Assembly (NCBI GenBank): GCA_963764715.1
Contig: CAVXTP010000010.1
Span: forward strand, 96,001 to 160,000
Direction of reading: 5' to 3'
Source of the DNA: an uncultured Acidobacteriota bacterium
GTDB lineage: Bacteria > Acidobacteriota > Thermoanaerobaculia > UBA5066 > Gp7-AA6
DNA length: 64,000 bases
Every line of letters begins with the position of its first letter. The first letter of the stretch is position 1. The position numbers were made by a program, and so were the translations under genes. Under the pieces are notes generated by a model. It did no database searches and was not told the origin of the DNA. It saw nothing but the letters and a program-made list of their open reading frames with translations. This document shows, piece by piece, positions 2,612-22,014 of this stretch.

Positions 2612-2641
2612 GGGGCGGCCGCACCGCGCGTCCTTGAGCGC

Positions 2642-3909
2642 TTGAAGACGGTCGTCGTCCTCGCCCCCGAGCCCATCCGGCCGCGCATGGCCGGCATGGG
2701 CATCCGCGCGCTCGAGCTCGCGCGGTCGCTGTCGGCGGCGGGCCTCGACGCGCGGCTTCTCGTGCCGAACGACGTCGGGGAGGCCCGCGAGGCCGCCGGG
2801 CGGTGTCGAGGTCGAGCCGCGGCGCCGGGCCGCCTCGCCGCCGCGGCGCGCGGGGCCGACGCCGCCGTCGTGTCGGGCCACGCCGCCAACTCCTGGTTCC
2901 ACGAGGTCCCGGAGCTGCCCTGCGCGGTCGATCTCTACGATCCCTTCCCGATCGAGAACCTCCACTACGCGAGGGAGCTCGGCGAGGCGACGGCGCGGCA
3001 CGACCACGCGACCCTCGAGCTGTCGCTGTCGCGCGGCGACTTCTTCCTCTGCGCCTCGGGCGAGCAGCGGCTCTTCTACGCGGGCGCGCTCTTTACGGCC
3101 GGGCGGATCGGCGCGTCGAACTTTCCGGAGGACCCGACGCTCGCGCGCCTGCTCGCGGTCGTGCCCTTCGGCGTGCCGACGGAGCCGGCCGCGGGCGACG
3201 GCGAGGCGGGACGGCGCGCGGTCGGCGCGGGCGGCCCGGGGCCCCTCGTCCTCTTCGGCGGCGTCTACGACTGGTACGACCCCGAGCTCCTGCTCGAGGC
3301 GTGGCCCGCGGTCCTCCGGCGCGAGCCCGCCGCGCGCCTGCTCTTCTTCGAGAACCCCAACCCCGCGACGACGCCGCAGGTCGTCTTTCGCGCGCGCCCG
3401 CGAGCGGGCCGCGCGCGATCGATCCCGGCGGGCCGCTCGATCCTCTTCTCGCCGTGGCTGCCCTACGCCGGGCGCGCCGACCTCTACGCCGGCTGCGACC
3501 TGCTCGTCTCGATCTCGTCGGAGGGGCTCGAGACGGAGCTCTCCTACCGGACGCGCCTGCTCGACGCGGCCTGGGGCGGCGTGCCGTCGGTGACGGTCGG
3601 CGGCGGCTCGCTCGCCCGCGAGCTCGTCGGCGGCGGGAGCGGCGATCGAGTGCGCCCGCGAGGCCGGGGCCCTGGCGGCCGCGGTCGAGGCCCTGCTCGC
3701 CGACGCTCCCCGCCTCGCGTCGATGTCGGACGCGGCGCGGGCGTTCGCGCGCGGCCGCGCGTGGCCGCGCGTGGCGGAGCCCCTGGCCGCGTGGGTCCGC
3801 GAGGCCCGCGTGGATCCCGGACGGCGCCCGCTGCCGGCCTTGGCGCCCGGACGGTCGCGGTTCTGGAGGCTTTTTCGATGAGGGCGGCATTCGCGCCGGG
3901 TCAGAGTAG
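2642..3909 (+). CDS. GT-B (GT4-like) glycosyltransferase (frameshifted; 3' end uncertain)
   Basis: MAGMGIRALELARSL, DLYDPF, LFGGVYDWYDP, ETELSYRTRLLDAAWGGVP motifs; locally broken frame. Confidence 0.7.
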
Positions 3910-3956
3910 GGGCGGGGCTCGTCCCCGCCCAGGGCGGCCACAAGGGCCGCCACTAC
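3906..3956. repeat. GTAG-type REP-like palindromic element (copy 1)
   Basis: GTAGGGGCGGGGCTCGTCCCCGCCC followed by GGGCGGCCACAAGGGCCGCCACTAC; two hairpins with outward GTAG/CTAC ends; matches copies at 20223 and 57797. Confidence 0.75.
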
Positions 3957-3985
3957 GACCGCGGGGCTGCTAGTCTTCCGCGGTC

Positions 3986-5186
3986 GTGCCGATACCGGAA
4001 GCCTCGATCGTCGTCGTCCATCACCGCGGGCTGGAGCACCTGCTCGAGTCCCTCGCGGCGCTGGACGCGGCCACGCGGGAGGGCCTGACGGCCGAGATCC
4101 TCCTCGTCGACAACGCCTCCGGCACCCCTCAGGACGAGGTCCTGCGGCGGCATCCGGCGGTCCGGCGGATCCCGTCGGCGGTCAACGTGGGCTTCGCGTC
4201 CGGTTGCCGGCTCGGCGTCGAGGCCGCCCGGGCGCCCCGTCGTGCTGTTCGTCAACGACGACGCCGTCGTCCGGCCGGACGCGCCGCGGCTCCTCGTCGC
4301 GGCCCTCGCGGCCGCCGACGAGGACGTCGTCGCGGTGGGCGGGCGGATGACGGACCGCACCGGCCGGCGCAACGACTTCTCCGACGGCTTCCTGACGTTC
4401 GACGGGCACGCGTTCGCCGCCCACGTCGGGCGCGCGGTCGAGTCGCTGCCGCCGGCCGAGCCGGGGGAGGAGCGGCTCTTCGCCTCGGGCGGGCTGATGG
4501 CGGTCCGCCGGGCGGACTTCCTCGCCTCGGGCGGCTTCGACGACGACTACTTCGCGTACCTCGAGGACGTGGACTTCGGCTGGCGGCAGTGGATCGCGGG
4601 GCGGCGCATCTTGGCCGAGCCCCGGGCGTGGGCGCTCCACCGCGGCGGGGCGACGGGCGAGGCGCTCGGGGTCTTCTCGCGCGGATTCCTCTTCGAGAAG
4701 AACGCCTTCGCCACGGCCTACAAGAACTTCGACGCGGAGCACTTCCGCGACCTCATGCCGGCGGTGCTCATGGCGTTCCTGACGCGGGTCGCCCAGATGC
4801 TCGCGGCGAGGAATCCCGGCGCGGCCGAGCTCCGCCGCGATCCCTACGCCGCGTCGTCGCGGCGGGGGCCGGCGCTCCGCGCGCTCTTCGGGATCTCCGA
4901 GGATTTCGCGGCGCGCGTCCGCGTCGATGATCCGCTGACCGTCGCGCAGCTGCGCGCGCTGTCCTGGATCCACGCGCACCACGCGGCCCTCGCCGAGAAG
5001 CGGCGGGCGGTGCAGGCCGCGCGCCGGCGCCCGGACGCCGAGATCTTCGCGAAGTTCCCGCTCCGCATCGTGCCGACGTACCCGGGCGACGAGCGCTTCG
5101 GCTCGGATTTCTTCGCGCCGTTCCTCCGGACCGCGCCCGGGCTCGTGCGGATGACGCTCGAGGAGATCTTCGAGGGCCGCGCATGA
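3986..5186 (+). CDS. GT2 family glycosyltransferase (frameshift near 4235)
   Basis: SIVVVHHRG, LVDNAS, NVGFASG in the first ORF; LFVNDD, GGFDDDYFAYLEDVDFGWR in ORF 4242-5186. Confidence 0.8.
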
Positions 5187-6106
5187 CGTTCTCGATCGTC
5201 ATCCCGACCTACCGGCGCCCCGAGACGCTGTTCCCCGTGCTCGACGCCCTCGCGCGCCAGACGGGCCCGCCGGAGTTCGAGGTGGTCGTCGTCGACGACG
5301 GGTCCGGCGACGACACGCCCCGGCGCCTGGCCGAGTACCGGCCGCCGTACGCGTTCCGGTTCTTTTCCCAGGAGAACGGCGGGCCGGCCTCCGCGCGCAA
5401 CCGGGGCGTGCGCGAGGCGCGGGGCCGCGTGGTCCTGTTCCTCGGCGACGACACGGTGCCGGAGCCGGCCCTGCTCTCGGTCCACGCGCGCACCCACGCG
5501 GAGACGCGGCCGTATCCGATCGCCGTGCTCGGCTACACCACGTGGCCGCGGGACCTCCGCGTGTCGCCGTTTCTCCACCACATCAACGAGTACGGCCTCC
5601 AGTTCGGCTACGGCCTCATCCGGGACCCGGAGCAGGTGCCCTTCAATTTCTTCTACACCTCGAACGTCTCGCTGCCGCGGGCGCTCCTGCTCGAGGCAGG
5701 CCTCTTCGACACGAGCTTCCCGCACGCCGCATGGGAGGACATCGAGGTGGCCTACCGCCTGATGCAGCGCGGCATGCGGATGCTCTACCGGCCCGAAGCC
5801 GTCGCGCGCCACCACCACGACATCACGTTCGCGTCCTTCCGCCGCCGGCAGGAGAAGGCCGGCGAAGCGGCGGCGATCTTCTACCGCAAGCATCCCGAGC
5901 TCGGCGATTTCCTGGCGGTTCCGCAGGCGCGCCTGCTCACCAGGAGCCGCACGTTCGCCGAACGCCTCCTGCCCCGCTGGGCGGCGCTCGCCGAGAAGCG
6001 CGCGCTGCCCGGCACCCGCCGCGCGCTCGATCGCGTCCTCCGCGACGACTACCTGCGCGGCTTGAAGCGCGGTCTCGAGTCGGCCGGGGAGATCTCTCCC
6101 GGGTGA
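5183..6106 (+). CDS. GT2 family glycosyltransferase
   Basis: FSIVIPTY, VVVDDGSGD, GPASARNRG, FLGDD, WEDIE; ATGA overlap with the upstream gene. Confidence 0.9.
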   Translation: MTFSIVIPTYRRPETLFPVLDALARQTGPPEFEVVVVDDGSGDDTPRRLAEYRPPYAFRFFSQENGGPASARNRGVREARGRVVLFLGDDTVPEPALLSVHARTHAETRPYPIAVLGYTTWPRDLRVSPFLHHINEYGLQFGYGLIRDPEQVPFNFFYTSNVSLPRALLLEAGLFDTSFPHAAWEDIEVAYRLMQRGMRMLYRPEAVARHHHDITFASFRRRQEKAGEAAAIFYRKHPELGDFLAVPQARLLTRSRTFAERLLPRWAALAEKRALPGTRRALDRVLRDDYLRGLKRGLESAGEISPG

Positions 6107-7624: not shown

Positions 7625-8591
7625 ACTTTTCGGCCGGTCGTCCGGATCGTCCGCGTCCCCACAGCCCGAGCAGCACTTTTTCGTAGTGCAGCCGGCGGTT
7701 GCCGCGGCGGTTGTCCGCCGGGGGATCGGCGGCCATGACGGCGGCGTCGCGCAGGATTTCCGGTCCCGTGCGGCGGGCGATCTCGGCGAGCTGGCCCGCC
7801 ACGGCGGCGTGACGCAGGCCCTGCGACTGCGGGGCTTCGGCCGCGAGCGCCGCGTCGGCGAGGATCTCGGCGAGGATGCGGCCGTCGCTCTTGTCGAGCG
7901 ACGCGACGGCCTCCGCGAGCAGGAGGAGCACCGCGGGACGACCGCGGCCCAGGCCTTCCTCGAGCGCGGCCACGACCAACTGGCGAAGCGTCCGGCCCTC
8001 GGCGAGCCGGGCGGCGGGGTCCTTCTCGCCGTCCTCGCGGGCGAAGAGGACGAGATCGCGCGCATCCGCCTCGGAGAAGCCGAGGCGCGTCCAGGCCGCA
8101 GCCCGCTCGGCCGCTCCCGGGGCGGGAAGGGCCGCGACCGTGCAGCGCGAGCGGATGGTCGGCAGGAGCGACTCCGGCCGGCTCGTCGCGAGGATCCACC
8201 GGAAACGCTCGCCGGGCTCCTCGAGCGCCTTGAGCAGCGCGTTGGCGCCTTCGAGGCCGAGCTCGGCGGCGCGCAGGATCCGCGCGACGCGGCGCGTCCC
8301 CTCGTAGGGGCGGCCGGCCCCGAACGCCAGGGCCTCGCGGACGCGGTCGACCTTGATCTGCAGGCCCTCGGGCTCGACGGTGAAGAGGTCGGGATGAATG
8401 CCCGCCTGGACGCGCCGGCAGCTCGAGCATTCGGCCTTCGGGTCGTCGCCGGGGCACAGGAGGCGCGCGGCGAGCCGGAGCGACTCGTCCGCGAGCCGCG
8501 CTTCCGAGGGGCCCGTCAGAAGCAGCGCGCCGGGGAAGCGCTCCGGGTCCGAGGCGAGGCGCGCGAGGGCGTCGGCGGTCGCGAGCGTCAT
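7623..8591 (-). CDS. holB: DNA polymerase III delta' subunit (divergent)
   Basis: ALLLTGP, Zn-module-like C...CSSC, HPDL, IKVDRVR, ANALLKALEEP, LLPTIRSRC; directly downstream of tmk as in the conserved tmk-holB pair. Confidence 0.85.
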   Translation of the reverse strand: MTLATADALARLASDPERFPGALLLTGPSEARLADESLRLAARLLCPGDDPKAECSSCRRVQAGIHPDLFTVEPEGLQIKVDRVREALAFGAGRPYEGTRRVARILRAAELGLEGANALLKALEEPGERFRWILATSRPESLLPTIRSRCTVAALPAPGAAERAAAWTRLGFSEADARDLVLFAREDGEKDPAARLAEGRTLRQLVVAALEEGLGRGRPAVLLLLAEAVASLDKSDGRILAEILADAALAAEAPQSQGLRHAAVAGQLAEIARRTGPEILRDAAVMAADPPADNRRGNRRLHYEKVLLGLWGRGRSGRPAEK

Positions 8592-9214
8592 CCGAGCGCG
8601 AGCCTCTCGGCGAGGATCCGCCAGGTCCGCTCGAAGACGTGCTCGGCGGGACCGTCGACGGCGACGACCGCGACCCGGGCGGGCTCGCGCCGGGCGATCG
8701 CGAGGAAGGCCTCGCGCACCCGTTCGTGGAGGGCGAGCTCCTCGGCCTCGAACCTCCCGGGAGATCCGGCGTCGCGCCGGCGCGCCCGCTCCAGGCCTTC
8801 CGACGGATCGCAGTCGTAGACGAGCGTCAGGTCCGGTGAGAGGCCCTCGCGCACCCGTGCGTCGACGGCCTCGATCCAGGCCGCGTCGAGCCCGCGCCCG
8901 GCCGACTGGTAGGCCTCCGTCGAGTCGCTGAAGCGGTCGCACAGCACGAGATGGCCGGCCGCGAGCGCCGGGCGGACCACGTCGCGGACGTGCTGGCGCC
9001 GCGCGGCTTCGATCAGGAGCCACTCCGATATCGGATCGAGGCTTCCATGCGCGGGGTCGACGAGGATCGCACGGATCTTCTCGCCGATCGGCGTTCCGCC
9101 GGGCTCCCGGGTGGTCGTGACGGCGCGGCCCCCGGCGCGCAGTCGCGCGGCCGCGAGGGCGAGCTGCGTCGACTTTCCGCAGCCCTCGACGCCTTCGAAC
9201 GTGACGAACGACAC
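8588..9214 (-). CDS. tmk: Thymidylate kinase
   Basis: FVTFEGVEGCGKSTQ P-loop, REPGGT, LCDRFSDSTEAYQ; GTG start at 9214 chosen (ATG at 9241 possible). Confidence 0.95.
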   Translation of the reverse strand: MSFVTFEGVEGCGKSTQLALAAARLRAGGRAVTTTREPGGTPIGEKIRAILVDPAHGSLDPISEWLLIEAARRQHVRDVVRPALAAGHLVLCDRFSDSTEAYQSAGRGLDAAWIEAVDARVREGLSPDLTLVYDCDPSEGLERARRRDAGSPGRFEAEELALHERVREAFLAIARREPARVAVVAVDGPAEHVFERTWRILAERLALG

Positions 9215-9309
9215 GGGCCGAAGAATACCCGCACCGGGCATTTTCGGCCCGGGAATGCCATTAACATGGTGACCTTTCTGTTGCTTCCGTCGGCGTAAGG
9301 GGGAGACGA

Positions 9310-11892
9310 GTGCCGGTAGAGGGTCGCGCCGCGTCCGGGCCCCGGCCTGTATGGTTCCTGGCCGTCGGCTTCGTCGGTCTCGCGATTGCGATCGCGTCGA
9401 TCGCCGACATGTTCTCGGCCCGGCCTTACGACGGGATCGTCCCGCTGCCCTACGGGCGGGAGGGGATCGAGGTCCGGATGGTCCTTCCGGGCAGCCCGGC
9501 CGAGAAGGCCGGGATCAAGGCCGGGGAGTGCGTCCAGGGCATCGGCAAGCGCATCGTCAACAGCAGCTCGGACGCCTCCGCGGAGCTCCGGCGCCACCGC
9601 ATCAGCGAGAAAGTCGACTACCTCGTCCGTAACGGACCGTGCCCGGGCGCGGAGGCTGCCGGGGCGGCGCCCGGCACGGAGCTGCGCACGGTCCGGCTGG
9701 AGCTCTCCTCGGAGCGGCTGGGCGGCCGGACATACCTCTACGCGGTCGTCGTCGGGTTCCTGTTCTTCCTGATCGGCCTCTTCGTTTACGTCCGGGTGCC
9801 CGAGGAGCGGTCGGCGCGGATCTTCTTCATGCTCTGCGTCCTCTTCTTGCTCTTCTTCGTCTGCCGGCTGCGTCCCGCCTCGTACTGGTGGATCGACGTC
9901 TTCGTGCAGAACACGGGCACGGTCAGCCTGTTTCTCCTGCCGGCCGTCTTCCTGCACTTCTTCCTGATCTTCCCGCGGCCGAAGCGGCTCCACTTCGCCC
10001 GGCCGGACGAGTGGACGGGCGAGCCGCCGCCGCGCTGGAAGACGGCCCTCCAGGATTTCCTCTCGACCAGCCCGACGCTGCTCTACCTGCTCTACGCGGT
10101 TCCGCCCTTCGTCTTCCTCTACGACGTCATGCGCCAGGTCCGGGGCGAGAAGGTCACGGTCCTCTCCGGGGCGCCGCTGTCCTCCTGGATCCTGCTCGGC
10201 GACTACCTCGTGCTCGGACTCGTGGCCCTGGCGCACTCGGCCTTCACGCTCGAGGACCCGCGCGAGCGCCGGCAGGCCTTCCACGTCTTCGTCGGGACGA
10301 TCCTCGGAACGGTCCCGTTCGTCCTCTTCTTCATCGTCCTGCCGTCGGCCTTCGGCATCGACGAGTACGCCTTCTACGGGATCATCCCGATGATCCTGAT
10401 CCCGGCGACCTTCGCGTACGCGATCGTCCGCTTCCAGATGCTCAACGTGCGCGTCATCGTGCGGCGCACGTTCCTCTACGCGGCGACGACGGCCGTGCTC
10501 CTCGGCCTCTATGCGCTCGTCGTCGCCCTGGCGAACCTCGTCTTCTCGTCGTCGCGCCTGTCGGCCTCGCCGCTCTTCAACTTCGGCTTCTTCCTCGTCG
10601 GCATCTCGCTCTTCGAGGTCATGCGCCGGCGCCTCCAGGCGCCGCTCGACAAGCTCTTCTTCCGCGAAAAGTTCGACTACCAGGCGGCGCTGCTCGAGAT
10701 GAGCGAGGCGATCACGGGAGAGCTCGACCTCGGGCGCATCGCGGACTACCTGACCTCGAGCGTCTCGGCGACGATGCGCCTCGACAAGGCCTCCATCTGG
10801 CTGCGGGACCGGGACGGCTGGCTCGAGCGGCGCGGCCGCCGCGAGGACCGGCTGTCGCCGTCGGCCGCCGTGCGGCGCGTCCTGCGGCAGGAGGGCAAGC
10901 CCTCGGACCTCGAGGAGATCTCGCTGCACTTCGCCGACGGGGAGAGCGAGGAGTTCCGGGAACGGCTGGCGGCGGAGGGCTTCCGCCTGCTCGTGCCGCT
11001 CGTCTACCGCGAGCGGCTGATGGGCATTCTCGCCCTCAAGGAGAAGCTCTCCGGGGAGCGCTTCGACCGGGACGACCTGTCGCTGCTGTCGACGCTCGCC
11101 AACCAGTCGGCGCTGGCGATCGAGACCGCGCTCCTGCACGACGAGATGACGCGGCAGGCGGAGCTGAAGCGCGACCTCGAGATCGCCCGCGACATCCAGG
11201 TCAGCCTCCTGCCGCGGCAGGTTCCCGAGATGCCCGGGTTCGCCTTCCTCGGCGGCTCGATCCCGGCGCGCGTCGTGGGCGGCGACTTCTACGACTTCAT
11301 CCCGTTCGAGGACCGCCGGGTCGGGATCGTCATCGGCGACGTCTCGGGCAAGTCGGTCCCCGCCTCGCTCCTGATGGTCGCGTCCAAGGAGATCGTCTAC
11401 TCGCGGGCGTTGACGACGTCCGACCCGGGCCAGCTCTTTCAGGAATCGAACCGCCGGATCTATGCCATCAAGCGCCGCATGTTCGTGTCGCTGGGGTTTT
11501 TTCTCCTCGATGCCGACGCCATGAGCCTGCGCTACGCGATCGGCGGCCAGCCGCTGCCGATCCTGCTCCGGCCGGGCAACTCGGGGCCCTGCCTGATCGA
11601 GCCGCCCGAGCACCGGCTGCCGCTCGGGGCGTTCCGCGAGGTCCCGTACGACACCCGCGAGCTCTTCCTGAAGAAGGGCGACCTGATCTTTTTCTACACG
11701 GACGGCTTCACGGAGGCCATGGACTCGGACATGAACCCCTACGGGGAGGAGCGACTCATGGCCTCGGTCGCCGCGCGGCAGCACGGGACTCTGGACGAGG
11801 TGGCCAAGGCCGTCCTGGCGGACCTGCGGGACTTCGTGGGCGGGGCCGAGCAATACGACGACATGACTTTCCTGTTTCTCCGTGTGGAATAG
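9310..11892 (+). CDS. Membrane sensor phosphatase: PDZ + multi-TM + GAF + PP2C/SpoIIE (RsbU-like)
   Basis: PDZ (VLPGSPAEKAGIKAGE), several hydrophobic helices, GAF (LVPLVYRERLMGILAL...FDRDDLSLL), PP2C motifs VGGDFYD, GDVSGK, YTDG, YDDMT. Confidence 0.9.
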   Translation: MPVEGRAASGPRPVWFLAVGFVGLAIAIASIADMFSARPYDGIVPLPYGREGIEVRMVLPGSPAEKAGIKAGECVQGIGKRIVNSSSDASAELRRHRISEKVDYLVRNGPCPGAEAAGAAPGTELRTVRLELSSERLGGRTYLYAVVVGFLFFLIGLFVYVRVPEERSARIFFMLCVLFLLFFVCRLRPASYWWIDVFVQNTGTVSLFLLPAVFLHFFLIFPRPKRLHFARPDEWTGEPPPRWKTALQDFLSTSPTLLYLLYAVPPFVFLYDVMRQVRGEKVTVLSGAPLSSWILLGDYLVLGLVALAHSAFTLEDPRERRQAFHVFVGTILGTVPFVLFFIVLPSAFGIDEYAFYGIIPMILIPATFAYAIVRFQMLNVRVIVRRTFLYAATTAVLLGLYALVVALANLVFSSSRLSASPLFNFGFFLVGISLFEVMRRRLQAPLDKLFFREKFDYQAALLEMSEAITGELDLGRIADYLTSSVSATMRLDKASIWLRDRDGWLERRGRREDRLSPSAAVRRVLRQEGKPSDLEEISLHFADGESEEFRERLAAEGFRLLVPLVYRERLMGILALKEKLSGERFDRDDLSLLSTLANQSALAIETALLHDEMTRQAELKRDLEIARDIQVSLLPRQVPEMPGFAFLGGSIPARVVGGDFYDFIPFEDRRVGIVIGDVSGKSVPASLLMVASKEIVYSRALTTSDPGQLFQESNRRIYAIKRRMFVSLGFFLLDADAMSLRYAIGGQPLPILLRPGNSGPCLIEPPEHRLPLGAFREVPYDTRELFLKKGDLIFFYTDGFTEAMDSDMNPYGEERLMASVAARQHGTLDEVAKAVLADLRDFVGGAEQYDDMTFLFLRVE

Positions 11893-11976
11893 GCCTTTTG
11901 GGACGTTTCTTGGGCGATTCTGGGGCAAAACCCGGACATCCCCCATACGTATGAAAGGGTTAGAAGGGGCTCGTCC

Positions 11977-13374
11977 ATGAAGAAGAAGCGCTGGCTCTGG
12001 GTGGGAACGGCGGGGGTGCTCCTGCTGGCGGCGGGGGTGTCGGCCGCCGTCTTCATGTCGCACCGCCGGGACGTGACGACGACCTCCGAGGCGGCCTACG
12101 AGGCCTACCGGGAGGGGGTGGCCAACGAGAACCGCTTCTACTTCAAGGAAGCGCGACTGGCGTACGCCCGGGCCCTCGAGCTCGATCCGACCTTTGCGAT
12201 GGCGATGCTCGGGCTCGCGCGGCAGTCCAAGGAGCCCAGCCAGGGCGCCGCCCTCATCAAGCGGGCCGCCCGGGAGAAGGGGCGGCTGACCGAGCGCGAG
12301 CGGCTCCACGTGGACATGGCCCTGGCAATGACGGAGAAGCGGCACGAGGACGCGCTCAAGATCGCGAACGAGATCCACCAGAAATATCCGGCCGACACGC
12401 GGTCGGCGCAGGTCCTCGCGAACAACGAGATGGTCAGGGGCAACTCGGACCGCGGGATCAAGATCTTCGAGGAACTGCTCTCGGTCGACCCGAACAACGC
12501 CGAGGCCTACAACCAGATCGGCTACCGCTACGGTTACCGGGGCGACTACGAGAAGGCCATGGAGAACCTGAAGCGATACCAGTTCATCGCTGCCGACAAC
12601 GCCAACCCCTTCGACTCGCTCGGCGAAGTTCAGGCCTACTCGGGCCACTACAACGAGGCGATCGAGAACCTCAACCGGGCGCTGGCGATCAAGCCGGACT
12701 TCGTGGAATCCGTCGCGCACCTCGGAGTGGCCTACGAGGGCCTGGGCGAGTACGCGAAGGCGATCGAGATGTACGAGAAAGCCGCGGCCATGTCGGAGGT
12801 TGAAGACATGCGCCGCGGATACCTGATCCGCGCGATGCGGTCGGCCTTCTATTCCGGCAACATGAAGGAGGCCGTGCGCCTGGCGACCGAGGCGAAGGCC
12901 GTGAAGGTGGACAGCAAGTACGCTGAGCTCGACGCGGCCTATATGGACGCCGTCGTCGCCCTCGCGGAGGGGCGGGCCGCCGAAACGCTCAAGATCGTCG
13001 AGAGCACCGTGCCCAAGCGCGAAGCGCTCCTCGCCAAGGAGAACCTTCCGCCCGGCTGGAAGCCGCACTTTCCGCACGTCAACACGCTCACGGGGCTGGC
13101 CCTGGAGGCCGAGGGCAAGACCGCCGAGGCGCTGGAGTACTGGAAGAAGAACGCGAATCCGCCGACGCCTTACGAGAACTTCGAGCAGCGTCGGTCGATC
13201 TACGAGGCCCGCGCCCGCGTGGCGGTCGCGCTCGCCCGCCAGGGCCAGCTCGACGACGCCGAGAAGCTGATCGCCGAGAACCGGAAGTGGAACGCGAACT
13301 GGGCGCCGACGCGCCAGGCGGAGACGGCGGTGGCGGAGGCGCGCCGCGAGAAGGTGCTCGCCGCCGCGAAGTGA
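11977..13374 (+). CDS. Membrane-anchored/secreted TPR-repeat protein
   Basis: N-terminal KKKR plus hydrophobic helix; TTTSEAAYEAYREG, ALELDPTFAMA, DPNNAEAYNQIG, ALAIKPDF TPR-like repeats. Confidence 0.85.
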   Translation: MKKKRWLWVGTAGVLLLAAGVSAAVFMSHRRDVTTTSEAAYEAYREGVANENRFYFKEARLAYARALELDPTFAMAMLGLARQSKEPSQGAALIKRAAREKGRLTERERLHVDMALAMTEKRHEDALKIANEIHQKYPADTRSAQVLANNEMVRGNSDRGIKIFEELLSVDPNNAEAYNQIGYRYGYRGDYEKAMENLKRYQFIAADNANPFDSLGEVQAYSGHYNEAIENLNRALAIKPDFVESVAHLGVAYEGLGEYAKAIEMYEKAAAMSEVEDMRRGYLIRAMRSAFYSGNMKEAVRLATEAKAVKVDSKYAELDAAYMDAVVALAEGRAAETLKIVESTVPKREALLAKENLPPGWKPHFPHVNTLTGLALEAEGKTAEALEYWKKNANPPTPYENFEQRRSIYEARARVAVALARQGQLDDAEKLIAENRKWNANWAPTRQAETAVAEARREKVLAAAK

Positions 13375-13388
13375 GCGGCCGCCCGGCC

Positions 13389-14888
<1,500 letters not shown>

Positions 14889-14900
<12 letters not shown>

Positions 14901-15007
14901 GTCACTGTATCGTAACTGTCCCACTTTCATACTTATATCCTTATTTTGAAGATAGTTACAATACGACTGTGCGGAGCCTGACTACGCCTATGTGTCATTG
15001 TGATACG
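14889..15007. promoter_or_regulatory. Candidate upstream activator sites (inverted repeats) in an AT-rich intergenic region
   Basis: GTGGGACA...TGTCCCAC (14889-14924); TGTATCGTAACTGTC (14906-14920) inverted to GATAGTTACAATACG (14951-14965, 12/15); imperfect palindrome TGTGTCATTGTGATACG (14991-15007). Confidence 0.5.
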
Positions 15008-15097
15008 ATGCGCGCATGGCGCCGATCGAAGACCGAGGCAACGACTAAGGCGTTTGTCTTCATGTGCTTGGGTCGAAATCCGCGCCGCGCGCGGGCG

Positions 15098-15113
15098 TGG
15101 CAGGACTCTTGCG
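15098..15113 (+). promoter_or_regulatory. sigma54 (-24/-12) promoter
   Basis: TGGCAGGACTCTTGCG closely matches TGGCACG-N4-TTGC with exact GG-N10-GC spacing, directly downstream of the activator gene. Confidence 0.75.
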
Positions 15114-15132
15114 CTCTCTTCCGGTCGCAGTG

Positions 15133-15291
15133 ATGAGAAAAGCTCTCGCGATCGGATTGGAAGCCCTGGAGGTGCCCAACCTCCTGTGGGGGCTCTTGGC
15201 GGGCGAGATCTCCCTCGTCCTTCTCGCCGCCGCGTCCGATAAACTTCCGGCCGTCTTGATCCGGTCACTGCAACTCTTCCTCCGGTTCTAG
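15133..15291 (+). CDS. Small hydrophobic protein (52 aa), unknown function
   Basis: MRKALAIGLEALEVPNLLWGLLAGEISLVLLAAASDKLPAVLIRSLQLFLRF*; fills the gap between the sigma54 promoter and the RsbW-like gene; very short leader. Confidence 0.5.
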   Translation: MRKALAIGLEALEVPNLLWGLLAGEISLVLLAAASDKLPAVLIRSLQLFLRF

Positions 15292-15308
15292 GAGCCTCGA
15301 GCCGTCCC

Positions 15309-15773
15309 ATGTCGCACGGGGGAACTGCTCCGCCCGGGCTCGCGAGCGCCGGCTCCCGCGAGGTCTCGATGACCATCCCGGTGGCCCCGGAGATGGAGAT
15401 CGTGGCGACCGCCCAGGCCGCGGCGCTCGGCGAGTACATCGCGATGTCCCGGGATAAGATCGACGAGGTCCGACTCGCGCTCGTCGAGGCGTGCATCAAC
15501 GCGTTCGAGCACGCCGATTGCCGCGACGAGCAGCTCCACCTGACGTTCCGGCTGGGCCAGGAACCGAAGGGCAAGGAGTGGCTGGAAGTGGAGGTCATGG
15601 ACAAGGGCCGGGGGTTCGACCAGGCCCGGGTCGAGGAGCCGAGCATGGAGAAGACCTTTTCGAACCACCGCAAGCGGGGCTGGGGCCTCCAGATCATCAA
15701 GAGCCTGATGGACGACGTCGACATCACCTCCGGCGAATGGGGAACGCGGATCCGAATGAGGAAGTACAAGTGA
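15309..15773 (+). CDS. Anti-sigma factor / Ser kinase, RsbW/SpoIIAB-like (HATPase_c_2)
   Basis: EVRLALVEACINAFEH (N box), VMDKGRGFD (G1), RGWGLQIIKSLMDDV (G2), GTRIRM. Confidence 0.9.
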   Translation: MSHGGTAPPGLASAGSREVSMTIPVAPEMEIVATAQAAALGEYIAMSRDKIDEVRLALVEACINAFEHADCRDEQLHLTFRLGQEPKGKEWLEVEVMDKGRGFDQARVEEPSMEKTFSNHRKRGWGLQIIKSLMDDVDITSGEWGTRIRMRKYK

Positions 15774-16126
15774 GCGAGACGTGCAAGGTGTCCTCGGAGC
15801 GGCGGGGCGACGTGGCGATCCTCTGGACCGACGGCTACATCAACAACCAGGGGGGCGAGGAGATCGCGCGCGAGGCATACACCCACCTCGACCAGGGCGT
15901 GCGCGCCCTCGTTCTCAACCTCGAGAAGACCCGGATCGTCAACTCGATCGGCATCTCGATCCTGATCGAGGTCCTCGAGAAGGTGATGGACAAGAAGGGC
16001 GCGCTCGCCTTCTGCGGGCTGACGCCCACGATCGACAAGACGTTCCGGATCATGGGGCTCGCCCAGTACGCCGAGATCTACCCGACCCAGGAAGACGCCG
16101 TGCGGAGCGTCAGCCAGCCGGCCTGA
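15770..16126 (+). CDS. STAS-domain anti-anti-sigma factor, RsbV/SpoIIAA-like
   Basis: GTGA overlap; LVLNLEKTRIVNSIGISILI (phospho-Ser motif), FRIMGL, IYPTQEDAV. Confidence 0.9.
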   Translation: MSETCKVSSERRGDVAILWTDGYINNQGGEEIAREAYTHLDQGVRALVLNLEKTRIVNSIGISILIEVLEKVMDKKGALAFCGLTPTIDKTFRIMGLAQYAEIYPTQEDAVRSVSQPA

Positions 16127-16139
16127 GGAAGCCGCCGCC

Positions 16140-17769
16140 ATGACCGCCCCGGTTCCCACGACCCCGGCCGAGCGCCTCGAGGAGCTCTGGAAGCGGATCG
16201 GGGGAGTGCTCGAGGGCGATTCCCCGATTCACTCGCGCATCGCCGAGGCGGCGGTGCTCGCGACCGGCGCCCGCGACGCGACGCTCTACCTGCGCGACCG
16301 GGACGCCTGGGTCCGCACCGGCGAGCGCCTGGCCGGGGGCGTCGAGCCGGGCGAGATCCCGGAGCCGCTGCCGGCGGGCGTCTTCACGCGGGAGGGGCAT
16401 CTCTGGCTTCCGCTCGCGGCGGAGGGGGAGATCCACGGCCTCCTGCGCCTGGCGGAGCGCTCCGGGCGGCGAGACTCCCGAGCACGCGGCGCTCCTCGCG
16501 TTCCTGTTCGGCTCGCTCGTGGGCTCCCACCGCCTGGCGCGCCAGGTTCGGGAAGCGGAGTTCGAGCTCAAGGCGCGGCTGCTGGAGCTCGAGTCGCTCT
16601 ACGACCTCGGGCTCTCGCTCGGCGGGCAGCTCGACCTCTCGGCGCTCGCCGACGAGGTGCTCTTCCGGTCGATCTCGCTGACCGACGCGGGCAAAGGCGG
16701 GCTCGTCCTGTTCGAAGACGCCGACCACATTCTCCTCGAGCGCAACGTCGGCGGCGAGATCCTCGTCTCGCCGAAGTGCGTCACCTGGACGCTGCCCGAG
16801 GGCGGCCTGATCAACAACGAGTCGACGACCGACGCGATGCGCGACGGCAGCTGCAGCAAGTTCCTGGCGGTCCCGATCTCGGTGCCCGGGCGCCGGCTCG
16901 GCGTCCTCGCCGTCGCCGACAAGGAGTCCCGCGACGGCCGCGTCCTCGATTTCACGCCGACCGACGCGCGGCTGCTGTCTCTCTTCGCCAACCAGGCGGC
17001 CGCGGCGATCGAGACCGCGCGGCTGCACAAGGAGGCGATCGAGAAGGAGCGCATCGAGCGCGAGCTCGAGGTCGCCGCGGCGATCCAGCGCCAGATCCTC
17101 CCGCGCGACCTGCCCCGGGTCGAGGGCGTCGAGCTGGCGGCCCGCAACCGGCCGACCCGGCAGGTCGGCGGCGACTATTTCGACTGGTTTCCCCTCTCCG
17201 GCGGCCGCCTCGCGTTTCTCGTGGCCGACGTCTCGGGCAAGGGCGTCCCGGCGGCGCTGCTGGTGTCGACCGTCCACGCCGCGGTGCACCTCCAGATCGA
17301 CGACGCGAAGACGGTCGCAGAGCTCATCGGGCGGATCGACCGCCACCTCCAGCGTTACGCCGCGACGCGCAAGTTCCTGACGGTCTTCTTCGGCCTCGTC
17401 GAACCGGAGACGGGCGTGCTGCGCTACGTCTCCGCCGGGCACAATCCGGCCCTCCTGCGGCGGGCCGACGGACCGATCGAGCAGCTCAAGTCGACGGGCG
17501 TGCCGCTCGGGATGTTCCCCCACGCGTCCTGGAAGGAGGAGAGCGTGGTCATGGGGAAGGGCGACCTGCTGTGCGTCTACACGGACGGCGTCTCGGAGGC
17601 CCTCGACGCCTCCGACGAGGAATTCGGCCTCGACCGACTGACCGCGCTCGTCGCCGAGGGGACCGGGCCCGAGGAGCTGACCGGCAAGGTCTTCGACGCG
17701 GTCGAGGCGTTCGCCGCGGACGTGCCGCAGTACGACGACCAGACGCTCCTGATCGTCCGGCGAACCTGA
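16140..17769 (+). CDS. Cytoplasmic GAF + PP2C/SpoIIE phosphatase (frameshift near 16460-16490)
   Basis: N-terminal GAF-like part in ORF 16140; GAF, ELEVAAAIQRQILP, VGGDYFD, ADVSGKG, YTDG, YDDQT in ORF 16519-17769. Confidence 0.88.
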
Positions 17770-17800
17770 CCGCCCGGCGGGCCTCGGTTAAGATTCCGGG

Positions 17801-19474
17801 GTGATTCCGCTTCTCGCCGCCTTCCTGCTCCTCGCGTCGAACCCGCCGGCCGCCGTCGCTCCCGCGCCGCTCCTCCTCGAGAACGGCGTCGTCTACGTGT
17901 CCGCGGAGGCGAAGCCCTCGCGGGCCTCGATCCTTCTCGAAGGAGGGAAGGTCGCCTTCGTCGGGGACCCGGCGCGCGCGAGAGAGCTCGCCCGAGGGGC
18001 CCGGGTCGTCGACCTCGCGGGACGCTTCGTCTTCCCCGGTTGGGCGGACGCGCACCTGCACCTGCTGGGCGTGGGGAAGGCCCGCTCGATCGCGGACCTG
18101 CGCGCGCAGCCCGACGCCTCGGCGGCGGCGAGCCGGATGGCCGAGATGGCGAAGAGCCTTCCGCCGGGCACGTGGGCCGAGGGCCGGGGCTGGGACCAGA
18201 ACCTGTGGCCGGGCCGCGAGTTTCCGGACGCGCGGGTCCTCGACCGCGCGGTCCCGGAACGCCCGGCCGTCGCGGGCCGCGTGGACGGGCACGCCTTCTG
18301 GGTCAACACGGCGGCTCTGCGCGCGGCCGGAATCGACGCGTCGACGAAGGACCCCGAGGGAGGCCGCATCCTGCGGCGGAGCGACGGAACGCCGTCCGGG
18401 GTGCTCGTCGACAACGCCATGGATCTCGTGGCCCGCGCCATGCCGACTCCCACGCCGGCGGACCTCGACCGGTGGCTCTCCGCGGGAGCGGAGGCGTGCG
18501 CGCGCGTCGGCCTGACCGAGATCCAGGACGCCTCGGGCTACGACGCCGCGGCGATCGCGTCGCTCGAGCGCCTGGCGTCCTCGGGCCGGCTTCCGATCCG
18601 CGTCTATGCGACCGTCTCGCCCGAGCCCGACGCGCTCCCGAAGTTCCTCGCCCGGGGGACGCATCTGGGAGGCGGAGCGGACTTCCTGACGGTCCGCGCG
18701 GTCAAGGCGTACGCCGACGGCGCGCTCGGGAGCCGGGGCGCGGCGCTCCTGACGGACTACACCGACGAGGCCGGCAGGACGGGGCTCCTCGTGACCTCGC
18801 CCGAGCGGCTGGCCGAGATCGCGGGCGAGACACGAAAGGCGGGCTGGCAGCTCTGGATCCACGCGATCGGAGACCGCGGCAACCGGATCGCGCTCGACGC
18901 CTTCGCATCGGCCGCCGGCGCGCTGCCGCAGGCGCCGGCCGGCGCCTCGCGTCCCCGGATCGAGCACGCCCAGGTGATCGCCCCCGAGGACTTCCCGCGC
19001 TTCGCGCGGCTTTCGGTCATCGCCTCGGTGCAGCCGACCCACGCGACCTCGGACATGCCGTGGGCGGAGGCCCGGCTCGGGCCGACGCGGGTGGCGGGGG
19101 CGTACGCGTGGCGCCGGTTGAAGGATGCCGGGGCAAAACTCGCGGGCGGGAGCGACGCGCCGGTGGAATCCGAGAACCCGCTCCTCGGGTTCTACTCTGC
19201 CGTGACGAGGCAGAGTCTCGACGGCCAGCCCCCGGGAGGGTGGCGGCCGTCGGAGAAGCTGACCCGGCCCGAGGCCCTCGCCCTGTTCACGTCGGACGCC
19301 GCCTTCGCGGCGTTCGAGGAGTCGTGGAGGGGCCGGATCGAGCCCGGGTACGCCGCCGACCTCACGGTTCTGTCGCGCGACCCGCTCGCCGTGCCCGTGG
19401 CGGAGATCCCGGGCATCGCCGCCTTCCTGACGGTCGTCGGCGGGCGCATCGCCTGGGGGCCGGCGGCGCCGTGA
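17801..19474 (+). CDS. Secreted amidohydrolase, YtcJ-like (Amidohydro_3)
   Basis: Signal peptide; PGWADAHLH, KAYADGALGSRGA, IHAIGDRG, RIEHAQ, QPTHATSD, GGSDAPVE. Confidence 0.92.
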   Translation: MIPLLAAFLLLASNPPAAVAPAPLLLENGVVYVSAEAKPSRASILLEGGKVAFVGDPARARELARGARVVDLAGRFVFPGWADAHLHLLGVGKARSIADLRAQPDASAAASRMAEMAKSLPPGTWAEGRGWDQNLWPGREFPDARVLDRAVPERPAVAGRVDGHAFWVNTAALRAAGIDASTKDPEGGRILRRSDGTPSGVLVDNAMDLVARAMPTPTPADLDRWLSAGAEACARVGLTEIQDASGYDAAAIASLERLASSGRLPIRVYATVSPEPDALPKFLARGTHLGGGADFLTVRAVKAYADGALGSRGAALLTDYTDEAGRTGLLVTSPERLAEIAGETRKAGWQLWIHAIGDRGNRIALDAFASAAGALPQAPAGASRPRIEHAQVIAPEDFPRFARLSVIASVQPTHATSDMPWAEARLGPTRVAGAYAWRRLKDAGAKLAGGSDAPVESENPLLGFYSAVTRQSLDGQPPGGWRPSEKLTRPEALALFTSDAAFAAFEESWRGRIEPGYAADLTVLSRDPLAVPVAEIPGIAAFLTVVGGRIAWGPAAP

Positions 19475-20226
19475 ACGCAGCGCGGGCGGGGGCGGGAGTT
19501 CTCCTTCTCGTCGCGGGGCTCGGCTGCGATTCGCCGGGGAAGGGGGCCGCGAAGGTGCAGGTCACGCCGACCGACGGAGACGCCGCGCGGCGCGCGCGCA
19601 TGGTCGAGACGCAGATCGTCTCCCGCGGCGTGCGCGACCCCCGCGTTCTCGACGCGATGCGCAAGGTCCCGCGCCACCTCTTCGTCGAACCCGGGGAGCG
19701 CGCTCACGCGTACGAGGACCACCCGCTGCCGATCGGCGGCAGCCAGACGATCTCCCAGCCGTACATCGTCGCGCTCATGACGGAGCTCCTGGGCCTGCCG
19801 CCGCGGGCTCGGGTGCTCGAGATCGGGACCGGGTCCGGCTACCAGAGCGCGGTCCTGTCGCAGATCGCGGCCGAGGTGTACTCGATCGAGATCCTGCCGG
19901 ACCTCGCGCAGGCCGCCTCGACCAAGCTGAAGGAGCTCGGTTTCCTCAACGTTACCGTGCGCGCAGGGGATGGCTACCGCGGGTGGCCCGAGCACGCGCC
20001 CTACGACGGAATCATCGTGACCGCGGCCCCCGAAAAGATCCCCGAGCCCCTCGTCGATCAGCTCGCCGTGGGCGGACGGATGGTCATCCCCGTGGGCGGG
20101 TTCTTCCAGGAGCTCAAGGTCTTCACCCGCGAGAGGGACGGCCGCGTCAGCGAAAAGGACATCATCCCGGTGCGGTTCGTCCCGATGACGGGAGAGATCG
20201 AGAAAGACAAGGCCACGGAGCCGTAG
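19471..20226 (+). CDS. pcm: Protein-L-isoaspartate O-methyltransferase
   Basis: MRKVPRHLFV, QTISQPYIVALM, VLEIGTGSGYQ, GDGYRGWPEHAPYDGIIVTAA, VRFVPM. Confidence 0.95.
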   Translation: MNAARAGAGVLLLVAGLGCDSPGKGAAKVQVTPTDGDAARRARMVETQIVSRGVRDPRVLDAMRKVPRHLFVEPGERAHAYEDHPLPIGGSQTISQPYIVALMTELLGLPPRARVLEIGTGSGYQSAVLSQIAAEVYSIEILPDLAQAASTKLKELGFLNVTVRAGDGYRGWPEHAPYDGIIVTAAPEKIPEPLVDQLAVGGRMVIPVGGFFQELKVFTRERDGRVSEKDIIPVRFVPMTGEIEKDKATEP

Positions 20227-20285
20227 GGGCGGGGCTTGCCCCCGCCCTTCGACACGGAACGGGCGGCCACAAGGGCCGCCCCTAC
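20223..20285. repeat. GTAG-type REP-like element (copy 2)
   Basis: GTAGGGGCGGGGCTTGCCCCCGCCC...GGGCGGCCACAAGGGCCGCCCCTAC between convergent genes. Confidence 0.78.
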
Positions 20286-20298
20286 GAACGAGCCGGTC

Positions 20299-22014
20299 TT
20301 ACTGACCGGCTCCCTTGATCACGCCCTCGGCCAGGATGATCTCGACCCGCCGGTTCTTCGCCCGTCCGTCGGGCGTCGCGTTGTCGGCGACCGGGATGCG
20401 TGCGGCGTAGCCCTCGGCGCTCATGCGCTTGGCGGAGACGCCCTGGGCCTGGAGGAACGCCATCACGGAGTTCGCGCGGTCGCGGGAGAGCGGAACGTTG
20501 ATCGCGTCCCCGCCGGTCGAGTCCGTGTGGCCCTCGATGCGCAGGTTGATGTTGGGGAAGAGGGACACGATGCCGGCGAGCTTGGCGAGCGCGACCTGCG
20601 CGTTCTGCTTGAGCGTCGCCTTGTTGGTGTCGAAGAGGATGTCCGGCAGGTTGACGACGACGCCCCGCGCGGACTGGCTGATCTGGGCGACCTCGGACAG
20701 GGCGCCGCTCAGGCGGCCTTCGAGGTCGTTGCGCTCGGCGCGCAGCCGCGCGTTCTCCGCCTCGGTCTGGCCGACCCGCGTCTCGAGCTGCTGCTTCTGG
20801 CTTTCGAGCGCCGCCGCGGCGGCGGACACCTCGGCCGTCGTCTTCTCGGCCTGGGCCTGCGCGGCGCTCGCCTGCGCGGCCAGCGTTTCGGCCTTCTGAC
20901 GGGCGGCGTCGGCGTCGCGGCGCGCGGCGTCGGCGGCCTCGGCCGAGAGGCCCGCGGAGGCGGCGCGCTCCTGCGCGGCCGCGGCCTCCTGCTGCGCGAC
21001 CTGGGCCTGCTGCTGGAGCAGCGTCATCTGCTGCTGCGCGGCGGCGGCCTGCTGCTGCGCCTGGGCCAGCTGCTGCTGGGCGGCGGCGGCCTGCTCCCGC
21101 GCGGCGACGGCCTGCTCGCGGGCGGCGAGGGTTTGCTGCTGGGCCTCGGCGGCCTGCTTCTGGGCCATGGTCCGCTGCTGCTCGAGCGACTGCAGCTCGG
21201 CGGCGCGCCGGGCGGCCTCGGCCGCGGCGGCCTCGTCGGCCATCTTCTGCTGCGTCGTGCGGATCGCGGCCGAGGACTGGGAGAGGCTGCGGCGCGAATA
21301 GTCGACGCCGAGCTTGTCCTTTCCGCCCTTGTACGAGTTGGTGGCCTGGGCGAGCGTGATCGAGGCGTCGCGCATGGCGTCGGGCGCGTACTTCTCGGCG
21401 CCCATCTGCTGGGCCTGCTGGTAGACGTTCTGGGCCTGGATCAGGTCCAGCGACTCGTTGCCGGAATAGACCATGCTGCCGATCGTGGGGTTGCCGAGCC
21501 GGGGCGCCGGCGCGAACGCCGACAGCGTCACCGGCGTGCTCCGGAGCTTCTTGGGGGGCGGGGCGACCGACGTGAACACGACGAGCTCGGACGGCCGGAG
21601 CACCAGCGGGTAGGCCTCGGCGGTGATCAGCAGGCCGAACTCCTTCTGGCCCGTGCGGTACTCGGCGTCGCCGCTCTGCTTCCGGACGATCAGCTCGCCG
21701 AGGCTCTCGGTGGCCCCGTCGCGCGCGACGGCCCACACCACGTAGGACGTCACGTCGCCCGAGAAGAGGAGCGCGGGGGGCAGCTTCTTGTACGAGATCT
21801 CGACGCGGGCCTGCCCGTTCTTGAACTGAACTTCGGCCTCGGCCTGCGCGGGAGCCACGCGGCTCGACGCGGCGAGGTCCAGGTCGACGCTCTTGCCCTC
21901 CGGGAACTGGACGGCCGCGAGGTTCACGTCGGCGGCCGCGAGCGGCGCCGCGAGGCACGCGAAACCGAGGGCGAGGATCGTCTCGAGGCGGGGCCCGAAG
22001 ACACGCTTGTTCAT
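20299..22014 (-). CDS. OmpA-family peptidoglycan-binding protein with long Ala/Gln coiled coil
   Basis: Signal peptide; C-terminal ILFDTNKATLK, IEGHTDSTG, LSRDRANSV, GRAKNRRVEI. Confidence 0.9.
   Translation of the reverse strand: MNKRVFGPRLETILALGFACLAAPLAAADVNLAAVQFPEGKSVDLDLAASSRVAPAQAEAEVQFKNGQARVEISYKKLPPALLFSGDVTSYVVWAVARDGATESLGELIVRKQSGDAEYRTGQKEFGLLITAEAYPLVLRPSELVVFTSVAPPPKKLRSTPVTLSAFAPAPRLGNPTIGSMVYSGNESLDLIQAQNVYQQAQQMGAEKYAPDAMRDASITLAQATNSYKGGKDKLGVDYSRRSLSQSSAAIRTTQQKMADEAAAAEAARRAAELQSLEQQRTMAQKQAAEAQQQTLAAREQAVAAREQAAAAQQQLAQAQQQAAAAQQQMTLLQQQAQVAQQEAAAAQERAASAGLSAEAADAARRDADAARQKAETLAAQASAAQAQAEKTTAEVSAAAAALESQKQQLETRVGQTEAENARLRAERNDLEGRLSGALSEVAQISQSARGVVVNLPDILFDTNKATLKQNAQVALAKLAGIVSLFPNINLRIEGHTDSTGGDAINVPLSRDRANSVMAFLQAQGVSAKRMSAEGYAARIPVADNATPDGRAKNRRVEIILAEGVIKGAGQ

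Follow-up and report, generated by a model that had tools for sequence, protein, structure and literature searches.

We analyzed a 64,000-nucleotide (nt) window of contig CAVXTP010000010.1, from an uncultured Acidobacteriota bacterium (Thermoanaerobaculia), and focused on the region at 9310-17769, where partner-switching genes lie beside a sigma54 activator. A Pfam scan places a membrane phosphatase (PP2C-1), a TPR protein, the activator, a serine kinase, a STAS protein, and a second phosphatase (PP2C-2) on the + strand, in that order. Because of a complex model, a paralogous GAF domain, and noncanonical residues in the kinase and STAS protein, we consider the activator the likely output of the switch. 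The features of the locus are as follows.

9310..11892, + strand: PP2C-1, a membrane phosphatase arranged as transmembrane (TM) segment, PDZ, multiple TM segments, GAF, and SpoIIE, with PDZ probably outside (Pfam, hydropathy)
11927..11952, + strand: extracytoplasmic function (ECF)-type, SigW-like promoter motif, GAAAC(C/T)-N15-CGTAT, ahead of the TPR and activator genes
11977..13374, + strand: TPR protein with an N-terminal hydrophobic anchor or signal (Pfam, hydropathy)
13389..14900, + strand: GAF-AAA+-HTH sigma54 activator (bacterial enhancer-binding protein, bEBP) with a GVATGV loop (Pfam GAF, Sigma54_activat, and HTH_8)
14890..14906, no strand: enhancer palindrome 1, TG(T/G)GNCA-N3-TGNC(A)CA, overlapping the activator stop codon (top-scoring site in the window)
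14906..14923, no strand: enhancer palindrome 2, degenerate, its spacer one base longer than in relatives (anchored comparison; -190 cluster)
14991..15007, no strand: enhancer palindrome 3 (second-best site in the window)
15098..15112, + strand: sigma54 -24/-12 promoter (motif match and conservation)
15133..15291, + strand: 52-aa small protein, first gene after the sigma54 promoter (conserved open reading frame [ORF]; no known family)
15309..15773, + strand: serine kinase of RsbW/SpoIIAB fold, without RsbW Arg23 (Pfam HATPase_c_2; alignment to 6m36)
15770..16126, + strand: STAS protein of the GYINN/NSIG type, Ser59 being the predicted phosphoacceptor (Pfam STAS)
16140..17769, + strand: PP2C-2, with a degenerate GAF-like segment, a docking-type GAF, and SpoIIE (Pfam, frame analysis)

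Gene content and conservation of the locus

With PP2C phosphatases, an HATPase kinase, and a STAS protein with a conserved phospho-serine, the set of parts of an Rsb/SpoIIA switch is present; the NCBIfam models for RsbW, SpoIIAB, and SpoIIAA all scored under their cut-offs. No sigma factor was found among the 61 window ORFs scanned, where the sole weak Sigma70_r4_2 match is a LuxR-type response regulator, nor in 141 representatives of the 321 ORFs outside the core that 80 relatives carry within 10 kb (best 5 families shown). The original prediction for this DNA had described a co-oriented gene set that included a sigma54 promoter and a 52-aa ORF and encoded no sigma factor. Our scans bear out the gene set and the lack of a sigma gene, and both the promoter and the ORF proved to be conserved (see below); the enhancer palindromes and the ECF-type promoter had been missed. 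For the last GAF-PP2C gene, the domains were named correctly, whereas its true start at 16140, the additional GAF-like segment, and the extra base that splits the gene had escaped attention.

Relatives were gathered by scanning GTDB with the STAS alignment, which gave at least 600 pattern matches, 559 of them confirmed. The best 80 of these 559 were analyzed; all are Acidobacteriota, 61 to 98% identical. The activator lies upstream of STAS in 72 of the 80, and the remaining 8 contigs stop within 3.2 kb. Synteny was counted over the 55 loci with more than 8.4 kb upstream and, for downstream genes, over the 59 with more than 6 kb downstream. Activator, kinase, and STAS are kept together in 55/55 loci, TPR and PP2C-1 are found in 53/55, and the housekeeping genes tmk and holB in 52/55. 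Downstream, PP2C-2 and pcm are each present in 59/59 loci and an amidohydrolase gene in 41/59. Since tmk and holB are nearly as conserved, synteny alone cannot tell function from inheritance for PP2C-1 and TPR. Two loci are more informative in this regard: L067 and L068 have lost tmk, holB, TPR, and PP2C-1 and retain the activator, promoter, small ORF, kinase, and STAS, and on that account we regard this stretch as the core of the system.

A noncanonical kinase and STAS pair

The kinase aligns to 6m36 (E 4e-10), and in 52 of 75 loci its stop codon and the start of STAS share a 4-nt overlap. STAS Ser59 aligns with the phospho-serine of SpoIIAA. RsbW Arg23 contacts RsbV Asp23, and Glu21 clashes with sigma (PMC7340262, in part; here and below, this mark denotes a source on which we draw only in part). 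According to alignments to solved structures, Arg23 corresponds to Thr34 of the kinase, Asp23 to Asn25 of STAS, and Glu21 to STAS Tyr23. The kinase position is Arg in 0/76 copies and Thr in 72/76, and STAS Tyr23, Asn25, Asn58, and Ser59 are invariant (81/81). Because the equivalents of Arg23, Glu21, and Asp23 are all replaced, the switch, to judge from its residues, is not of the canonical sigma-releasing kind.

Predicted docking of STAS on the activator GAF domain

The GAF domain of the activator is 36% identical to that of PP2C-2 (E 2e-21) and only barely matches that of PP2C-1 (E 1e-3). Profile cross-scores (median bits) are 88-89 for activator/PP2C-2, 48-50 for PP2C-2/PP2C-1, and 16-18 for activator/PP2C-1. 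By these comparisons, the activator GAF is a close paralogue of the PP2C-2 GAF.

The structure model of the activator GAF has a predicted local distance difference test value (pLDDT) of 91. A complex model of two copies of activator residues 4-190 with STAS scored 0.72, compared with 0.02 for the best of 3 controls; the score mark was attained by 116 of 157 solved pairs (71 of 107 without a like complex) versus 2 of 215 mismatched pairs, counts that are only a rough guide here. At least 90% of the contacts recur between runs, and the partners have pLDDT values of at least 88. The modelled interface sets STAS residues 23, 25-26, 55-60, 63, and 87-96 against GAF residues 7-21, 38-50, 69-72, and 132-137, the contacts with the lowest error (GAF-STAS) being D48-N58, D48-S59, D48-N25, and E132-N58. 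Position 48 is Asp in 65/65 activators, Asp or Asn in 70/70 PP2C-2 proteins, and Arg, His, or Lys in 51/51 PP2C-1 proteins; Glu132 and Arg134 are present in every activator (65/65) and PP2C-2 (70/70) and in no PP2C-1 (0/51). The STAS protein is thus predicted by the model to bind activator GAF residues 7-137 through its Ser59 loop. The face it presents is the one by which RsbV binds its kinase; since both partners would use this same face, GAF and kinase should compete for STAS, and a phosphate on Ser59 would face Asp48.

No STAS-GAF complex appears among the titles of the nearest solved GAF structures, and fold and profile searches returned generic GAFs. A search with the activator GAF gave only close activators among the matches listed (best 120 of 217).

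The activator and its sigma54 promoter

The ATPase motifs of the activator are preserved (Walker A in 64/64 and Walker B in 63/64 intact copies), and a C-terminal HTH is present. The sigma54-contact loop reads GVATGV rather than GAFTGA, and does so in 63/64 intact copies. The GVASRA reading of the loop in L010 results from a frameshift and is not a real variant. The best NCBIfam match is NifA, at 372 bits and under the cut-off of 529. In one assembly, an 831-aa TPR-activator fusion (P0304) probably reflects an indel artefact.

Taken by itself, the -24/-12 motif is weak: it occurs once in the window, and 15 of 100 shuffles also yield one. A relaxed form nevertheless recurs at this position in 76 of the 77 relatives that contain the kinase start, and the small ORF has its first start codon 32-50 nt further on. 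Palindromes cluster at about -208, -190, and -107 across 76 promoters, with at least one site in 76/76, at least two in 75/76, and 294 sites in all versus 51 in shuffles. Among other sigma54-like motifs (about 139 in 1.34 Mb), only 1 has such a palindrome upstream. Where insertions of 1-2.5 kb displace the activator (L073, L075, and L080), the palindromes remain with the promoter. The elements of a sigma54 target promoter, -24/-12 and upstream palindromes, are therefore in place as sequence, and this activator probably reads the palindromes. Presumptive IHF-like motifs cluster near -40/-55 and -150 relative to the sigma54 promoter (15058-15070 in the window, where the match is weak, with equivalents in relatives). 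An Rfam scan of 8500-20500 gave no match, and no sigma70 consensus promoter or + strand terminator was found in the region.

Some loci carry an isocitrate lyase, malate synthase, or unknown gene between activator and promoter (L073 5120-7378, L074 295-2178, L080 117-2444, and L075 8072-9022). Elsewhere in the window, at 29828-29844, a 10-bit palindrome match lies inside a glycoside hydrolase gene, and no sigma54 motif was assigned there.

An ECF-type promoter ahead of TPR and the activator

Of 63 intergenic regions separating PP2C-1 from TPR, that of the window among them, 58 have the ECF-type motif, compared with a mean of 1.1 and a maximum of 5 in shuffles; the pattern was first spotted by eye in nine of the 63 regions. 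It agrees with the SigW-type consensus tgaAAC/CGTA (PMC5758882, in part). Its conservation argues that a sigma70-family factor acts upstream of the locus; TPR and the activator are probably transcribed with an ECF sigma whose gene lies elsewhere. Although the locus has no sigma gene, as was correctly noted before, it is thus probably not independent of such factors. Ahead of PP2C-1, an ECF motif was found in only 15 of 56 loci and not in the window. Further matches in the window, at 62608 (-), 47450 (+), and 27270 (-), are possible regulon members; the one at 62608 (-) is upstream of an NMT1-like binding-protein gene.

The same GAF type in other proteins

A distant STAS match, P0203, combines a docking-type GAF with a truncated STAS that belongs to the family of the locus STAS; it lies on a 1.9-kb contig and is possibly a chimera. 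A search with its GAF gave 13 matches of 1,828 candidates, and 12/12 non-self matches are GAF-(PAS)-adenylate cyclase-kinase fusions (P0391-P0402). Against the activator and PP2C-2 profiles, the GAFs of these fusions reach 40-79 bits; against that of PP2C-1, they reach 6-15 bits. Counting the P0203 query, they have Asp48 and Glu132 in 13/13 and Arg134 in 12/13. The fused kinase belongs to the family of the locus kinase (130-166 bits) and likewise lacks Arg23. These sequences suggest that STAS, kinase, and docking GAF form a portable module with interchangeable outputs. STAS proteins of the same family are also fused to TIR-like, restriction-nuclease-like, and PP2C domains (P0136, P0144, P0187, P0236, P0161, and P0200; domains assigned by eye), and such fusions may place defence-type effectors under the switch.

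Phosphatases, TPR protein, and neighboring genes

In PP2C-1, hydropathy indicates 1 TM segment ahead of PDZ and about 9 after it (9 segments above threshold, a tenth by eye), and the catalytic motifs are found in 50/50 intact copies. PP2C-1 is the probable input phosphatase, and we infer its link to the switch. PDZ/HisKA_7TM-like look-alikes were also seen, as a lead only.

The PP2C-2 gene starts at 16140 rather than 16519 and spans 1,630 nt, with a coding bias that shifts frame near 16460. Alignment to L004 shows that one extra base near 16457 splits the gene in this assembly. In relatives it is unbroken (about 542 aa in the closest), and 69 of 80 have the GAF and catalytic domain in one frame. 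The catalytic motifs are found in 68-69 of 69 copies. Scattered frameshifts occur in many genes of several close relatives, and for this reason we consider the split a likely assembly error. We reject programmed frameshifting, given that the gene is single-frame in 69 relatives and that the N-terminal segment is continuous in the close ones.

PP2C-1, the TPR protein, and the activator weakly resemble PrsK, PrsT, and PrsR, respectively. The models for PEP-CTERM PrsK, PrsR, and PrsT scored 63, 345, and 64 against cut-offs of 300, 503, and 312, and no receiver or HisK domain was found; the locus is thus not assigned to that system. Neither RsbR/RsbS genes, the marks of a stressosome, nor the RsbU N-terminal domain was found in the window or flanks. 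In L072 (12038-13432) and 9 similar loci of a more distant group, a double aspartyl-protease gene replaces the amidohydrolase after PP2C-2 and could belong to the sigma54 operon. Upstream of holB/tmk, window positions 874-6106 hold a glycosyltransferase cluster and a PEGA-domain gene, which are partly syntenic (38/55 and 41/55).

The 52-aa small protein

The small ORF has a counterpart in 76/76 loci (under a filter that demanded a hydrophobic end), and codon-position differences of 164/73/353 at positions 1/2/3 (last 16 codons, 50 loci) are biased to the third position. Because of this recurrence and bias, we regard it as a genuine coding gene. The product has a hydrophobic helix, a turn, an amphipathic helix, and a hydrophobic C terminus (modelled helices 14-34 and 40-51, pLDDT 79). 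Pfam and NCBIfam scans of 71 members gave nothing convincing (lowest E 0.03, and no family matched by more than 2 members), and an Atlas search gave no usable match. Suspected resemblances to a pilin, TatA, or a PEP-CTERM tail found no support. The hydrophobic C terminus resembles a PDZ ligand motif. A bolder and rather doubtful idea is that the PDZ phosphatase reads this peptide as its signal, which would give a peptide autoinduction loop.

In the close group, the transcript leader predicted ahead of the small ORF (15124-15133 in the window) measures only about 9 nt and has no obvious ribosome-binding site. In L023-L052, a spacer of 140-260 nt separates the small ORF from the kinase, often opening with ATG just past the stop, and possibly represents an extra ORF or internal promoter.

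Relation to known systems

The locus would work most like Pseudomonas SiaABCD (SiaA PP2C, SiaB kinase, SiaC, and SiaD cyclase), of which it is not a member. There, unphosphorylated SiaC activates SiaD via its N67/T68/S69 loop, and the kinase blocks binding (PMC8457831, in part). The logic predicted here is the same, with the loop N58/S59/I60. In contrast, the Sia output is a diguanylate cyclase docked on its helical stalk, whereas here it would be a sigma54 activator docked on its GAF domain. SiaC is a DUF1987 protein whereas ours is a Pfam STAS; moreover, the SiaA score is 39-41 versus a cut-off of 700, and there is no core GGDEF gene.

In the syp system of Vibrio fischeri, the activator SypG, itself a sigma54 activator, resembles ours in serving a module of STAS, kinase, and phosphatase. 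That activator transcribes the sigma-less module (PMC10120452, in part). Unlike ours, SypG is a response regulator controlled by a phosphorelay, SypA acts below transcription, and SypE is a fused kinase/phosphatase; the sigma54 operon here lacks polysaccharide genes. The Bacillus RsbU/P-RsbV-RsbW-SigB and SpoIIE-SpoIIAA-SpoIIAB-SigF switches share with our locus the three folds, two input phosphatases, coupled kinase/STAS genes, and the phospho-serine position; here, however, no cognate sigma is nearby, Arg23/Glu21/Asp23 are replaced, and STAS rather than the kinase is the predicted output.

The bEBPs of the GAF type, NifA, Nlh1, and NorR, have the same GAF-AAA+-HTH architecture, enhancers, and -24/-12 promoter; ours differs in its GVATGV loop and in its predicted ligand, a STAS protein read by phosphorylation state. 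NifA is itself controlled by a protein partner, NifL. The loop recurs in DVUA0100 on Desulfovibrio vulgaris pDV1, a GVATGV activator that sits inside a type III secretion cluster together with genes for SpoIIE, STAS, and an RsbW-like protein, again without a sigma (L081 18571-22840 and L082 4293-5060). Its activator has no GAF-like N terminus (by translation), and its STAS loops are canonical-type, making it a parallel rather than a member of the same family. A plasmid tblastn search with our activator found generic activators, and the Desulfovibrio case alone was examined further. GVATGV activators may generally be tied to partner switches.

Switches without a sigma factor, which the original prediction treated as unusual, are already known in Syp, Hmp, Rba, and Btr (PMC8256260) and in Sia (PMC8457831, in part), so this feature had been overstated. 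RsbT-RsbU provides a precedent for one input domain common to several effectors (PMC12143880, in part). In the literature that we searched, which includes few subscription papers, we found no report of this locus or of a STAS protein that binds a sigma54 activator.

A proposed mechanism and its alternatives

We favor, with moderate confidence, a sigma-independent partner switch that has the sigma54 activator as its output. By homology, the kinase would phosphorylate STAS on Ser59, and PP2C-2, probably together with membrane PP2C-1, would strip the phosphate. Unphosphorylated STAS, the partner-switching component, is modelled to dock its phospho-loop on the activator GAF (Asp48, Glu132, Arg134 region), from which phosphorylation would free it. 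Docking would alter the ATPase state of the activator; by analogy with SiaC-SiaD, activation seems somewhat the better guess than inhibition. The activator would then bind the three palindromes and open the promoter of the small ORF-kinase-STAS-PP2C-2 operon, which would close a feedback loop, and PP2C-2, with the same docking GAF, would probably sense its own product. An ECF sigma encoded elsewhere may set the level of TPR and activator. Two proposals of the original prediction gain support here. The activator as output agrees with the GAF paralogy, with the noncanonical kinase/STAS residues, and with the STAS-activator model, a test it had itself put forward together with gene order, which is conserved (activator 55/55, PP2C-2 59/59). 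Of the feedback loop, the placement of the switch genes behind a conserved sigma54 promoter with enhancers is confirmed, and the activator is their probable reader. Its third proposal, an envelope signal that would set STAS phosphorylation through the PDZ and TPR proteins, is no more than possible: their genes flank the core in 53/55 loci, tmk and holB do likewise in 52/55, and L067 and L068 have the core in their absence.

Several points weigh against this proposal. It leans on a single complex prediction whose controls were unrelated proteins rather than GAF/STAS paralogues, and cousins of true partners can pass. The score is the model's own confidence, and since the model was fed the alignment, conservation at the interface is no independent evidence. 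Residues shared with PP2C-2 are not significantly enriched in the interface (9/27 versus 25/129, p=0.09). Adjacency alone is weak evidence, since pcm (59/59) and tmk/holB (52/55) are almost as syntenic, and the loci compared are the closest 80 of the 559 confirmed, Acidobacteriota throughout. The palindrome profile was seeded from the same promoters in which it was counted. The search for sigma factors covered the window and flanking ORFs of relatives. Finally, the GVATGV loop lacks the usual Phe, and that such a loop is active is no more than a prediction, made for a single Desulfovibrio protein, DVUA0100 (PMC4641369, in part).

The alternative that survives best, though we think it unlikely, is a canonical anti-sigma switch, in which the kinase sequesters a sigma70-family factor from elsewhere, possibly the ECF factor of TPR and the activator, and the activator merely transcribes the switch. 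The kinase is RsbW-like by its match to 6m36, STAS is SpoIIAA-like, and an ECF-type promoter feeds the locus; unlinked targets are known in Chlamydia sigma66 (PMC8256260) and Anabaena SigC/SigE (PMC13712970, in part). Yet the equivalents of Arg23, Glu21, and Asp23 are replaced in every copy, and this scenario leaves unexplained the paralogous GAF of activator and PP2C-2, the modelled STAS-GAF interface, and the GAF-cyclase-kinase fusions. It is compatible with STAS control of the activator, and the two can coexist.

Slightly less probable is an arrangement like that of Syp: the activator would drive transcription of the switch, STAS would have some other downstream target, and the shared GAF would reflect sensing of the same small molecule. 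Vibrio SypG transcribes syp while SypA acts below transcription (PMC10120452, in part), and small-ligand binders are among the nearest solved GAFs. The residues common to the two GAFs, however, map to the modelled STAS site, helices 1-2 and the DKE loop, and the central part of the domain has little in common between them. We give still less weight to an RsbT-like scheme, in which STAS would let go of the kinase, and the freed kinase would control both PP2C-2 and the activator by binding or phosphorylating their common GAF. Through a shared N-terminal domain, RsbT acts on phosphatases, on a diguanylate cyclase, and probably on histidine kinases (PMC12143880, in part), and the cyclase fusions join kinase and GAF in one polypeptide; against this, the complex model fits STAS by itself to the conserved GAF patch, and its score is high, and Pfam does not detect the RsbU N-terminal domain in the activator or PP2C-2. 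That activator and switch are functionally unlinked parts of an inherited gene block, as the nearly equal synteny of the housekeeping neighbors might suggest, is very improbable given the core retained in L067/L068 after tmk, holB, TPR, and PP2C-1 dropped out, the conserved enhancer-promoter layout, the GAF paralogy, and the complex model.

Implications

STAS control of the activator leads to a broader proposal, which we put at slightly better than even: the DA...DKE-x-R GAF subfamily would be a dedicated receptor for the phosphorylation state of one STAS family, letting a Ser kinase/phosphatase switch act directly, as an alternative to the His-Asp phosphorelay, on outputs as different as a sigma54 activator, a phosphatase, and an adenylate cyclase, the last of these in another lineage. 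To our knowledge, no ligand has been assigned to the majority of the GAF domains that sigma54 activators carry. The STAS outputs SypA, HmpV, and RbaV are likewise without known targets (PMC8256260; PMC10120452, in part). Between these orphan STAS outputs and orphan GAFs, the locus offers a residue-level link, the predicted contact of the STAS Ser59 loop with GAF Asp48/Glu132. If true, this would be a new way to switch sigma54 transcription and would provide a sequence signature for other STAS-controlled effectors. It would also define a conserved regulatory circuit of an abundant, mostly uncultured soil class.

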